Below, one piece after another: positions 17,649-21,615 of a DNA stretch of 44,243 nucleotides. Under the pieces are notes generated by a model. It worked only from the letters and a program-made list of their open reading frames with translations. It was not told the DNA's origin and made no database searches. The DNA is from Flavobacteriales bacterium (GTDB taxonomy: Bacteria; Bacteroidota; Bacteroidia; Flavobacteriales_F; PHOS-HE28), in assembly GCA_049290175.1 (NCBI GenBank), contig JBATND010000351.1, positions 1 through 44,243 of the forward strand, read 5' to 3'. The number at the start of each line of letters is the position of its first letter. Position 1 is the first letter of the stretch. The translations under genes were made by a program, and so were the position numbers.

Positions 17649-20150
17649 TCACCCCCGCACGTACACGCGCTTCACCCGCGGCGGCACGCTCGTGAGCACT
17701 TCGTAGGGAATGGTGCCCAGGTCGCGCGCGAGCTCGGTGATCGGATGCGCGGCATCGAAGAGCACGGCCTCGTCGCCAACCGCGCATGTGATTTCCGTGA
17801 CATCGATCATGCACATGTCCATGCACACGGTGCCGATGATGGGTGCCGCATGGCCATGCACCCAGAAGCGGCCCACGCCGTTGCTGAGCCTGCGCGATAG
17901 TCCATCGGCGTAGCCCATGGGCACGGTGGCAATGAGCCGCTCACTGTCCGCCACGCCGCGCCTTCCATAGCCGATGGTGCTTCCTGGAGGCACGCGCTTG
18001 ATCTGCGCGATCACCGTGCGCAAGCTGGCGGCGTGCAAGAGTTGGGCGGTCTCTTGTGTGCTGGAACCGATACCGTGCAGGCCGATGCCGAGCCGTACCA
18101 TATCGAAGTGGGCTTCCTTCCAACGCGATGCACCGGCTGAATTCGCGATGTGCAGCAGCGGCCTGTAGCCGAGCACCGCGATCAACGCATCGGCCATGCG
18201 CGTGAATGCCACGATCTGCCCGCGCGTGAACTCGTCGTGCGCGGGATCGTCGCTCGCGGCAAGGTGCGAAAGGATCGATACGACCTTCAGTCCTTTCGCC
18301 CCACGAATCGCCTCGATGAGCTGCGGCAGTTCATCCTCCGCGAAGCCCAAGCGCCGCATGCCCGTATCGAGCTTCATGTGGATGGGCGGCGCATCGGCAT
18401 GCGCTTGGGCAAAGCGCGCGGCCTCGCTGAAGGAGCGCTCGTCGTACACCTCTGGCTCCAAGCGGAATCGGTGCAGGGTCTCCATCGGAACCGGCTCCGG
18501 GTTCATCACGAGGATCGGCGTGGTGATGCCCTGCTGCCGCAATTCAATGCCTTCATCGGCATAGGCGACACCCAGGTATTGCACCTGCTCATGCGCGAAG
18601 AGCCGCGCTAATTCCAGCGCGCCATTGCCATAGCCGAAGGCCTTTACCATGGCCATCACAGCCACGGCTACCCTCTCCTTCGGAGAGGGGCCGGGGGTGA
18701 GGCCGAGCGACGCGCGGTAGTAGTTGAGATTGTGCCGGATCGCCTCCAGGTCAACCTCCATCACGGTGCCATGCACTTGTCGTTGCCAGCGCGTTGCGAT
18801 GCGCTCCAATCCGAAGGCGCGCGCACCCTTAACGAGCACGGCGTGATCCTTCAGCGCTGCTGGATCGAAACGCGCGAGCAGCTCTTCGGCATCAGCGAAA
18901 TGCTGCACGTGCGGTGCGAAGCTCATCGCGTGCTCGCGCAGCTCAGGGCCAACAGTGATCACGGCTTCAACACGCGATCGCGCAAGCAGTTCCTCCACAC
19001 GGAGATAGCGCAGCGCGGGCTCCTCGCCTCCCATCAAGTCGGAGAGCACAACGGCCTTTGGCCTACCAGCGGCGAGTGCATCGAGGTGCTCCAGCGCGAT
19101 GGCCAAGGATGCCGTGTCGTTGCTGTATGCATCGTTGAGCAGCGTGATGCCATGCACGCCATCGAGCGCTTCGAGGCGCATGCTCACCGGCGGCAGCGTG
19201 GGCGTGCGCGCGGCGATCCATTGCGGCGAACGGCCCAAGTGCAGCAGCAGCGCCACGCAATGGATGGCATTCTCGGCCGAGGCTTGATCGGTGAAGGGGA
19301 TCTCGAAATCGAAGTCAACGCGGTCGTTGAAGACGCGGATGCGCTGGCCGTGCGGCAGCGGCTCAGTACGGACCACATGCAGCCAGCCCTGGCGCTCGCG
19401 GCTCCAGCCCAGCAGGGCAGCGCGCTGATCGATGCCATGCGAATGCAAGGCCTGCACGACATCGGCATGATCGGCGCAGAAGACAATGGCTTGCGCATCG
19501 CGAAATAGCATTGCCTTCTCCACGGCCTTCGCACGGTCGTCTGCGAAATGCTCACCGTGCGCTGGGCCGATGTTGGTGAAGATGCCGACGGTGGGATGGA
19601 TCACGGCGCGCAATCGCTCCATCTCGCCCGGCTCACTGATGCCAGCCTCGAAAAGGCCCAGCGTGTGCTCGCGCCGCATGCCCCACACGCTCAACGGCAC
19701 GCCCACCTGCGAGTTCCAACTGCCTGGGCTGCGCGCGATGTGCTCACTGTCGCGCAGCAGGTGGAAGAGCCACTCCTTCACTACGGTCTTGCCATTGCTT
19801 CCGGTGATGCCGATCACCGGCGCATGCATCTGACTGCGGTGCCACGCGGCGATGCGCTGCAAGGCATCACGCGTGTCGCGTACGCGTATCACATTGCTAT
19901 CGGGCAGTCCTTGCGTTGCCGCTGCATCACTGACCATGAAATGGCGCATGCCCTTCGCATGCAGCTCGCGGATGTATCGGTGTGCATCGTGCCGTTCGCC
20001 ACTGAGTGCAACGAAGAGCGTGTCATTCGGCGAAAAGGGCTTGCGCGAATCGACGCTGAGGTGCGCGATCAACGGGTCGTTGTGCTGGGAGAGCCACTCC
20101 CCACCGATGGCCTCGGCGAGCGCGGTGAGGCGGTGGCCGGCGCTGGTCAT
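17649..20150 (-). CDS. murF/alr: bifunctional UDP-N-acetylmuramoyl-tripeptide--D-alanyl-D-alanine ligase / alanine racemase
   Basis: The N-terminal half has the MurF P-loop GITGSNGKT. The C-terminal half has the Alr PLP motif [10 protein letters not shown] and the C-terminal YEVLTSV...RVKRVY. The start was set at MTSAGHRL (ATG 20150-20148), in ATGA overlap with the tdk stop. Confidence 0.92.
18669..18703. repeat. hairpin-forming REP-like unit embedded in frame in murF/alr
   Basis: The plus strand reads CCCTCTCC-TTC-GGAGAGGG, a perfect 8-bp stem at 18671-18689, followed by GCCGGGGGTGAGG. On the coding strand it is translated as [11 protein letters not shown]. Confidence 0.6.
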
Positions 20151-20737
20151 TGCGCGTTCCCGACGGCACGGGCCTGATCGAAGCACACGCGGCACAACGG
20201 CTGGTAGCTCTCCTTCTCGCCCAATTGCACCAGATCGCGCCCAGCGCTGATTCGGTGGCTGAAGGCCGCGAGCGCTCCGCATCTCACGCAGATGGCATGC
20301 ACTTTCGTCACGTACTCGGCGGTGCTCAGCAGCTGCGGCATGGGGCCGAAGGGCCTTCCGAGGAAATCCATGTCGAGGCCGGCGGCGATCACGCGCACGC
20401 CCTTCGCGGCCAATTCGGCACAGACCACCGGCAGCCGCTCATCGAAGAATTGCGCTTCATCGAGCCCGACCACTTCGACATCATCAGCCAAATGCAACAA
20501 CTCTTCGCTGCTGGCGATAGGGCGCCCGCGCAAGCTGGTGCTATCATGGCTCACCACCTCGGCCTTGGCATAGCGCGTATCCACTTGCGGCTTGAAGACC
20601 TCGACGCGCTGCTTCGCGAATTCGGCGCGGCGCAGGCGACGGATCAGTTCTTCGGTCTTGCCGCTGAACATGCTGCCGCAGATCACCTCAATCCAGCCCC
20701 TGCGCGGGCTTTGGCTACCGGTGTGTTCGAGGAACAT
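20147..20737 (-). CDS. tdk: thymidine kinase
   Basis: [18 protein letters not shown]-loop, DEAQFF and the C-terminal zinc-ribbon cysteines (AICVRCG...PLCRVC). The start was trimmed to MFLEHTG (ATG 20737-20735). Confidence 0.92.
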
Positions 20738-20832
20738 GCAAAAAGCTGTGGAAAGCTGGGCAGAAGGCCCGTTGCGCGAGCGGCGAAAATAGGGATCTTC
20801 GTCCGGGGCCTCCGGTAACGGCCCAAGCACCC

Positions 20833-21615
20833 ATGAGCAACGACAAGGGTTTCCGTTCGATGAGCGCGCTGGTAGAGGCGCTCGGCAAAGCCGAAGAAGG
20901 ATTGCGCAAGGGCACATTGCCGCTCACCGCGCTCGATGAAGCCGCCAACGATGCGCGCGAGCTCTTTGAGCGGTTGGTGGTGATCCGCCACAAGGCGCGT
21001 GAATCCGCGCATGCACGAGCCTCAGCGGAAACAGAGAAACCGAAGGCCGCACCCGCACCGGTTGAGAAGGCCGTAGCTGCCGTGCCACCTCCAGCTCCCC
21101 CGCCCCCTGCACCCATTGCGCAGCCCGTTGCCGAATCGGCTGCCCCGCCGGAGCCCAAAGCCGCTGAAACAGCCATTCGCCTGAACACGCGCCCCGTGGC
21201 ACCGCGCCAAACCGATTTGGAGGAAGCCATCGCGTCGACGAGCGAACCCGAGCCGGTGATGAAGACCGCCGCTGAATTCCTGCGCGAAGCGCAAGCCGCC
21301 AAGACCGCAGCGCCGCAAACCGTTCAGGCCGCACAAGCCAAGCCTGTGACATCCGTAGCCGAGAAGCTCGAGCGCGCGCGCATCGCCGACCTGCCCAAGG
21401 CCATCGCCCTCAGCGACAAATTCTGGTTCACCAAGGAGCTCTTCGGCGGCGATGCCAAGGCGTATGAGGTGGGTGTCTCGTTGCTCAACAGCGCCAAGGA
21501 CCTCGGCGAAGCGCAAGCCTTCCTGAAGGAAGAGTTGCTCGCCAAGCTGAAGACACCACCGGACCCCGAGGCAGTGGATGCGTTCACCGATCTGATCGAG
21601 CGCCGCTTCGCATGA
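20833..21615 (+). CDS. hypothetical protein with a Pro/Ala-rich linker and a helical C-terminal domain
   Basis: 260 aa with a helical N-terminal segment and a low-complexity [10 protein letters not shown] linker. The C-terminal [19 protein letters not shown] block resembles, from my memory, a conserved Bacteroidota hypothetical family. ATGA coupling to the M28 peptidase gene. Confidence 0.6.

Follow-up and report, generated by a model that had tools for sequence, protein, structure and literature searches.

The 44,243-nt stretch of DNA analysed here (hereafter the window) is contig JBATND010000351.1 of the Flavobacteriales bacterium assembly GCA_049290175.1, and our subject is a short hairpin-forming repeat unit that lies in frame within its murF-alr gene, which encodes a fusion of MurF with alanine racemase (Alr). 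The gene occupies positions 17649-20150 of the minus strand, with the stop codon at 17649-17651 and a likely ATG start at 20150, as delimited by Pfam matches, the list of open reading frames (ORFs) and an alignment of orthologues that begins at residue 1. Pfam recognises Mur_ligase_M and Mur_ligase_C, followed by Ala_racemase_N and Ala_racemase_C. The open frame continues to 20282, 44 codons upstream of the ATG that the orthologues support, and this upstream stretch overlaps the 3' part of a thymidine kinase-like ORF on the minus strand (20147-20917); the ORF call of 17649-20282 is probably an over-extension.

The whole repeat unit extends from 18667 to 18703, with its G-rich strand on the plus strand, as defined by an nhmmer profile of 221 family units (E = 7e-9) and by comparison of lengths with the orthologues. 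Positions 18671-18702 of the plus strand read CCCTCTCC TTC GGAGAGGG GCC GGGGGTGAGG and are translated in frame from the minus strand. On the plus strand, the pyrimidine arm CCCTCTCC (18671-18678), recognised from sequence and folding, pairs with the purine arm GGAGAGGG (18682-18689) across the hairpin loop TTC (18679-18681), a position that is variable across family members; the second loop, GCC (18690-18692), is the commonest loop 2 of the family, and the third block GGGGGTGAGG (18693-18702) reads as a mirror of the purine arm. The stem is the perfect 8-bp one, followed by GCCGGGGGTGAGG, that the original prediction had described from the sequence, and its loop measures 3 nt. It folds at -12 kcal/mol as DNA, with a fold z that is modest (-1.8 to -2.3) because GC-rich shuffles fold too. 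The ninth C:G pair of the family has been lost in this unit, 18670 being an A, which gives ...ERV in the peptide where the consensus gives ...ERG. A search of Rfam with positions 18400-19000 on both strands returned no family (best E 5.6).

Compared with its orthologues, the assembled contig shows a net gain of 30 nt, or 10 amino acids, at 18669-18703. The stretch that encodes HNLN..GYG measures 111 nt here and 81 nt in 17 of 19 same-genus orthologues; it is 87 nt long, without a unit, in G019 and 114 nt long, with a unit of its own, in G001. The insert is absent from 18 of these 19 orthologues, and the nearest relatives, the sister species G007 (91% protein identity) and G009 (79%), have an Alr loop without the unit. 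Alignment by phmmer with a solved alanine racemase (PDB 4y2w) opens a 10-residue gap exactly at the insert, and the codon of the lysine that binds pyridoxal 5'-phosphate (PLP), within MAMVKA, lies at 18642-18644 of the minus strand, 9 residues past the insert, and is invariant in 23 orthologues. These results confirm that a lineage-specific, in-frame insertion has occurred close to the PLP-binding lysine, as had been proposed, and the alignment, in which the orthologues have a loop of 4-5 residues at this point, agrees with the statement of the original prediction that they are short there.

An AlphaFold model of the Alr domain, built on a 23-sequence alignment (mean predicted local distance difference test score, pLDDT, 81.7), has in this region a helix (residues 17-30), a coil (31-45) that includes the insert, and a strand (46-50), after which comes Lys52, the invariant lysine of MAMVKA. 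The coil is a part of low confidence (pLDDT 62 for the block), and its predicted form is in keeping with the suggestion that the insert is a loop. In the model, the insert lengthens the loop that enters the N-terminal end of the strand whose C-terminal end bears the PLP lysine. In TIM-barrel enzymes, the face at that end of the strand lies opposite the active site. Natural variability of the stretch before the strand is evident from several solved racemases, which align only from residue ~45 onward. The gene has a ratio of nonsynonymous to synonymous divergence (dN/dS) of 0.125 relative to G007, with a dS to this sister species of 0.49, values that point to purifying selection, and there is no second Alr-domain match in the unit's own genome (98.95% complete). 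With a gene under purifying selection and no second Alr, the insert-bearing protein is very probably the working racemase of the cell, for which the extra loop would be neutral.

Within its own genome the unit is almost alone. Its 32-mer is unique there even at up to 6 substitutions, looser scans of the same genome with the tail or the hairpin gave no further match, and the nhmmer profile finds 2 units only, namely the window copy and a degenerate copy at C428:7413-7445 (E = 0.003). The latter belongs to the T/A subfamily described below (CCTTCTCC AAA GGAGAAGG, with GCCTCATCCC before it) and begins directly after a stop codon (...GTGGTCTAA, then GCCTCATCCC). The original prediction had expected other copies in the genome; one degenerate copy exists but no close one, which comes near to there being no other copy at all. 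With a single further copy of this kind, the status of the unit as a repeat is established mainly through its relatives, whose units define the family. The hairpin CCYTCTCC-N3-5-GGAGARGG occurs in 70 of 101 congeners, at up to 60 sites per genome, and the reversed control pattern at 0-1. The family consensus, as derived from the flanks, is (GCATTCC)CCCCTCTCC-NNN-GGAGAGGGG-CC-GGGGGTGAGGG(C), ~42 nt in length; the window unit fits it across the hairpin, loop 2 and the G-rich block, and units in other genomes encode the peptide of the window unit too. The original prediction spoke of a dispersed GGAGAGGG..GGGGTGAGG repeat that yields PSPxER and GEGxGVR peptides when translated, and such a family is indeed present in the congeners and in their translated units.

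The family is not limited to the genus. The exact 33-nt pattern was found in metagenome-assembled genomes (MAGs) labelled Flavobacteriales, Lewinellaceae, Hymenobacter, Cytophagaceae, Ignavibacteriales, Planctomycetaceae, Gemmatales and Limnobacter, the Planctomycetaceae, Gemmatales, Ignavibacteriales and Limnobacter matches being loci L063, L065, L074 and L100. Near-identical units would occur across phyla unless some of the bins are contaminated, and some MAG labels may be binning errors. Solo units also form tandem arrays, with a period of 42 nt and without a nuclease gene. In one Lewinellaceae MAG (L123, CAVWSC010000023.1), seven tandem repeats with a 177-nt period, each with one exact unit, lie in a long open frame (peptide ...NVTPLPRRGAGGEGTRR), where the unit appears to form part of a larger tandem repeat that codes for protein.

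Judged from its sequence, the insert is a hairpin followed by a mirror-symmetric third block, the architecture of the intrastrand-triplex repeats known as BoxC, PIT (potential intrastrand triplex) or TM_ECO. Mirrored, the purine arm GGAGAGGG reads GGGAGAGG, and the segment GGGTGAGG differs from this by one A, which is replaced by T. The original prediction had noted the hairpin and the sequence after it, but not that this G-rich tail mirrors the purine arm, which makes the unit a triplex motif of the BoxC/PIT type and more than a plain hairpin. Because the third block mirrors the purine arm, G.G:C, A.A:T and T.A:T triads could form, in accordance with the rule for class II, purine-motif triplexes, and the mirror pattern suggests that such a triplex could exist in vivo. 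A minority T/A subfamily, with the arms CCTTCTCC/GGAGAAGG, has a T:A pair in place of a C:G pair, and the mirrored position of the third block is A or T in all nine of its units (GGGGGATGAGG or GGGGGTTGAGG); A or T is found at this position in 0 of ~25 major-type units. The two arms and the third block show a three-way covariation, which may trace to one or two ancestral changes.

The published TM_ECO pattern is CCCTCNCCC-N3-6-GGGNGAGGG-N3-GGGNGAGGG (PMC4666352, Holder et al. 2015), and the BoxC/PIT/TM_ECO elements, a class II triplex motif that is G/C-rich and present in E. coli as well as other bacteria, were described by Hoyne et al. 2000, as that work is cited in PMC4666352. Both these elements and the window family consist of a C-rich arm, a loop of 3-6 nt, a G-rich arm, a 3-nt loop and a G-rich block that mirrors the arm, and their third blocks are nearly identical (GGGNGAGGG; that of the window unit fits GGGNGAGG). 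The elements are dispersed, as is the window family among the congeners, often as inverted pairs, in copy numbers that differ sharply between close relatives, and neither has a published partner protein. However, the TM_ECO arm is CCCTCNCCC while the arms of the window unit are CCCTCTCC/GGAGAGGG, so that we have the same kind of element in a different sequence family. According to PMC4666352, TM_ECO repeats are abundant and highly conserved, have no known function and are 'always located intergenically' in E. coli K-12, whereas the window unit is translated as part of an essential enzyme and half or more of the units sampled in the genus are intragenic. The window family differs also in that its units flank DUF559 genes in relatives.

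The residence of the unit inside a gene is not peculiar to the window. Of the 257 units in the fetched loci, 160 lie in frames that are open for at least 60 codons on both sides, and for ~60 of those 160 a tblastn alignment to the orthologue in the unit's own genome, which is poor in units and served as the empty site for intragenic units, runs straight across the unit. In an unbiased sample of the genus (30 loci, 40 units), 16 units are verified as intragenic and 6 more are the ends of in-frame DUF559 cassettes, giving at least 22 of 40 (55%). The host genes include those for IleRS, LeuRS, AspRS, DnaE, UvrD, Mfd, a MiaB-like radical-SAM enzyme and urocanase. The original prediction took an in-frame, tolerated insertion of this type to be unusual, a view that needs qualifying for this genus, since at least those 22 sampled units lie in conserved genes; on the evidence of these loci, in-frame residence is the commonest state of the repeat in the genus. 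The 61 distinct verified intragenic units use all six combinations of strand and frame, and the frame that reads GGGGG-TGA-GG in the major type is used only by T/A-subfamily units, which read GAT GAG there. This is as expected of a DNA insertion that is blind to frame and is followed by selection against stop codons. The window unit belongs to the commonest class, read from the C strand as LTPGPSPxERG.

Other genes are likewise occupied more than once at the same place. Urocanase has two recurrent unit sites, occupied in both orientations, and one IleRS site is differently occupied in three genomes. In AspRS (L103, L106 and L165; empty site in G000, the unit's own genome, on C311), 1, 2 or 5 tandem units are present at one site with a period of 42 nt, or 14 amino acids (MPLTPGPSPxERGG); a complete unit therefore fills an exact number of codons and is able to multiply as a repeated peptide. 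At two sites where relatives carry a unit, G000 has loops of the same length, in urocanase (C16, residues ~430-445, compared with L114) and in the MiaB-like enzyme (C395, residues ~113-128, compared with L040), with faint similarity between the loops (APRPVSPSGAEDKG against SPSPSEKGLGDEG and SSSEAGHRERSE against SPLSLGEGLGVR); these loops may be decayed old units and not truly empty sites.

The same Alr loop has been occupied repeatedly. We searched all 131 genomes of the genus for the hairpin within 10-40 nt of ATGRTNAARGC and found a unit in the Alr loop in 6, each time solo, and none in the other 125. Besides G000 (net gain +30 nt), these are G001 and G086 (+33 nt, peptide IPGPSPVEKGEQ, T/A subfamily), G107 (+24 nt, TPSPSPRERG), G130 (+51 nt, APPQPSPKEREN) and G073 (+39 nt, SSPLLGRGAGGEA), the last in the opposite orientation. 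In a MurF-Alr tree reconstructed with the loop removed, the insert-bearing lineages are scattered, each with empty sisters at starred support, which indicates at least five independent gains. Outside the genus but within the class, a search of 388 genomes gave no unit next to MVKA. The unit that G001 and G086 have in common shows 0 changes in 36 nt where ~3-4 are expected from a dS of 0.39 between the genes, a weakly significant difference; we considered it as a sign of constraint at the DNA level and set it aside as too weak to use. The mixture of orientations and lengths would follow from a permissive surface loop that is subject to high insertion pressure.

One may ask whether the loop attracts units through its sequence, with break repair dependent on DUF559 copying units into sites that resemble the segment of the third strand and loop 2. 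The empty site reads CTCACCGCCGG in the sister of the unit's own genome and CTCACACCCGG in the sister of G130, where the unit has CTCACCCCCGG, and its likeness to the unit amounts to 10 of 12 matches in G007 (the top 4% of windows of the gene) and 11 of 12 in G006 (the top 0.7%). However, taken together, the empty Alr sites of 18 congeners resemble the unit no more closely than random windows of that gene do (median rank 0.26), and the junction in G130 is not colinear with the unit-like match in its sister's empty site. We regard such a sequence-directed hot spot as doubtful. If it were real, it would amount to a new, homing-like spread of triplex-hairpin repeats into conserved essential genes, with fossil loops left behind after loss of the nuclease.

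The candidate for that nuclease comes from the surroundings of the units in relatives. At three loci (L031, L034 and L047), an ORF with a match to Pfam DUF559 (PF04480; E ~1e-31) lies between two inverted units that are ~470 bp apart; the unit-flanked ORFs that were examined are DUF559 and not Y1_Tnp, DUF559 being the only family searched for. DUF559 is present in 73 of the 131 genus genomes, often within open frames of >1000 codons, and the five cases examined are cassettes with inverted units that lie in frame within LeuRS (L177/G072, L179/G051, L180/G075, L187/G134 and L188/G079), at a place equivalent to residues ~310-317 of the LeuRS of the unit's own genome, the start of the editing domain. 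Many other DUF559 matches of the genus, in open frames of ~1200 amino acids, are probably LeuRS cassettes likewise. The median number of hairpin sites is 6.5 in genomes where DUF559 matches strongly and 1.0 in the rest (Mann-Whitney p ~1e-9, with kinship ignored). The association suggests DUF559, a Vsr-like PD-(D/E)XK nuclease, as the best candidate for the activity that spreads the units. No PF04480 match was found in the genome that carries the window unit, and in the sister species G007 a hairpin search gave no units and there is no listed DUF559 match. The window unit itself is solo, with no DUF559 ORF between inverted units at the locus.

To account for these observations, we propose that the segment is a solo unit of a BoxC/PIT/TM_ECO-type repeat, dispersed and mobile at the level of DNA, and was left as an orphaned relic in a tolerant loop of Alr; we hold this explanation with considerable confidence. 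The unit would have landed in the loop that joins the N-terminal helix of the Alr domain to its first barrel strand, through an insertion process blind to frame and orientation, with selection removing the copies that broke genes. It would survive here because its net gain is a multiple of three, its strand and frame are free of stop codons, and its peptide is a flexible coil. Rich in Pro, Gly, Ser and charged residues, this peptide would lie on the bottom face of the TIM barrel, at the end of the strand away from the PLP lysine, leaving the enzyme functional. In relatives, the DUF559 gene, bracketed by inverted units and often read through in LeuRS, would spread the units; in this genome the nuclease would have been lost, with hardly any other units remaining. 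The lack of DUF559 and of nearly all other units marks the Alr copy as stranded, presumably with no function of its own.

Several observations weigh against this explanation, or against parts of it. The junctions show no target-site duplication of the kind that, with terminal inverted repeats, marks a miniature inverted-repeat transposable element (MITE), and the sequence is scrambled over the five residues that follow the insert (VAVAV, compared with GTRT in the sister species); the event was therefore not a simple cut-and-paste. The link to the nuclease is imperfect and uncorrected for phylogeny: the 25 units of G071 occur without DUF559, DUF559 occurs in four genomes that lack units of this hairpin type, and the ends of cassettes count as units, which inflates the totals in DUF559 genomes. 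Furthermore, the window unit is within one or two bases of the consensus, yet its own genome has no source copies. The boundaries of the insert are in addition blurred by the sister-species site, which has CTCACC.CCGG in common with the unit's own end.

A near-consensus unit in a gene with a dS of 0.49 to its sister is either younger than that split or imported, and the latter leads to the alternative that survives best, in which the unit arrived by homologous recombination with an insert-bearing alr allele of a relative whose repeat system was active. A genome with neither DUF559 nor another good unit as a source, and a unit almost at consensus, are what one would expect of an import, and the identity of murF-alr (17652-20150) to that of G007 (L002) is mosaic, with 92-98% in several stretches, 72-80% elsewhere and 77-83% around the insert, a pattern that suggests recombination within the gene. 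The stretch of 72-80% comprises ~500 nt of the C-terminal half of Alr and is as divergent as the outgroup G009. However, the other five alleles with an insert all differ from this one in both unit and junctions, divergence is ordinary in the flanks at a distance of 60-120 nt, and a sliding-window search for an imported tract around the insert found no clear tract boundaries at it. We consider import possible though not likely; it would explain how the unit arrived and not what it is, and is thus compatible with a relic of a mobile triplex-type repeat.

The remaining alternatives fare worse. The unit might be the surviving end of a full DUF559 cassette that once occupied the Alr loop and has since been deleted, given that cassettes bounded by units are read through in frame in the housekeeping genes of congeners; but all six occupants of the loop among the 131 congeners are solo, a unit next to MVKA is absent from the 388 genomes of other genera, and solo units form 42-nt arrays with no nuclease gene, which together make a cassette remnant improbable. 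Still less can be said for an extra loop, or a DNA or RNA hairpin, retained because it is useful, for instance as a regulatory pause site in the mRNA or as an interaction loop. The five or more independent gains and the identity of the G001 and G086 units over 36 nt would fit with such a role, but the occupants vary in their orientation, reading frame, added length (+24 to +51 nt) and peptide and have no protein feature in common, 125 of 131 congeners lack any of them, and the identity of the two units, with ~3-4 changes expected, is weakly significant; we think a useful role very improbable. A chance resemblance to the repeat, in an ordinary lineage-specific expansion of the loop or in an assembly artefact, would fit with the near absence of the repeat from the rest of the genome, but is scarcely credible in view of the strength of the profile match (E = 7e-9), the agreement with the consensus across hairpin, loop 2 and third block, the recurrence of the peptide in other genomes and the intact reading frame in a 44-kb contig.

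Parts of the proposed history, with a mobile repeat translated in housekeeping genes, a nuclease as its companion and the same sites occupied again, have counterparts in other systems. The closest published analogue of in-frame repeat insertion is that of the Rickettsia palindromic elements (RPE; PMC10969869), which, like the window family, are selfish palindromic repeats that reside in frame in many unrelated housekeeping genes and add peptides compatible with the fold. RPE are ~100-150 bp long, are confined to Rickettsia and have a peptide conserved in one frame, whereas units of the window family are 33-42 nt long, are conserved near letter for letter across phyla, use all six frames and have a third, mirror block. 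In the system of repetitive extragenic palindromic sequences, REPINs and their RAYT enzymes (REP/REPIN-RAYT; PMC3116915), short palindromes are scattered through the genome, a single small nuclease-type gene, the presumed mobiliser, lies between inverted units, and genomes without the enzyme have few units, all as in the window family; but the enzyme there is an IS200/IS605-type Y1 transposase and the repeats are extragenic, while the candidate here is a DUF559 PD-(D/E)XK nuclease linked to the units by gene neighbourhood. Inteins and free-standing homing endonucleases also reside in aminoacyl-tRNA synthetases, DnaE, helicases and other conserved enzymes, in frame, at sites that are repeatedly occupied and with a nuclease associated. 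Inteins, however, have a splicing domain, and the window family has none, so that its insert stays in the protein; unlike in simple homing, occupants of the same site differ in orientation and length. The small dispersed repeats (SDR) of heterocystous cyanobacteria, on which Elhai et al. wrote in 2008, are reportedly hairpin-forming mobile repeats of ~20-30 nt that lie within genes and within one another; they are said to differ in sequence from the window family and to be found in cyanobacteria only, and are not known to have a mirror third block.

To our knowledge, repeats of the BoxC/PIT/triplex-motif type have been known since the 1990s without their function, partner protein or mode of spread having been established, and the published picture of them is an intergenic one. 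Our literature search found no paper linking DUF559 to such repeats and no paper describing triplex motifs inside genes. The instance in the window is thus an ordinary one for its clade, while translated triplex-hairpin units within genes are, as far as we have found, unpublished. What appears to be new in the window's own case, from the comparison of alleles, is the recurrent occupation of one Alr loop, in at least five events and in both orientations.

Taken as a family, these would be repeats of the triplex type that live as translated loops of essential enzymes, filtered by selection on their reading frame, occupying the same loops again and again and travelling with a DUF559 gene. DUF559 would be a candidate enzyme for a defined substrate, and the natural pairs of filled and empty sites offer a route to the chemistry of insertion. 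The units may also serve to map loops that tolerate insertions in Alr, the aminoacyl-tRNA synthetases and DnaE, and, for annotation, they would explain the odd PSPxERG and GEGxGVR segments that are common in proteins of Bacteroidota.

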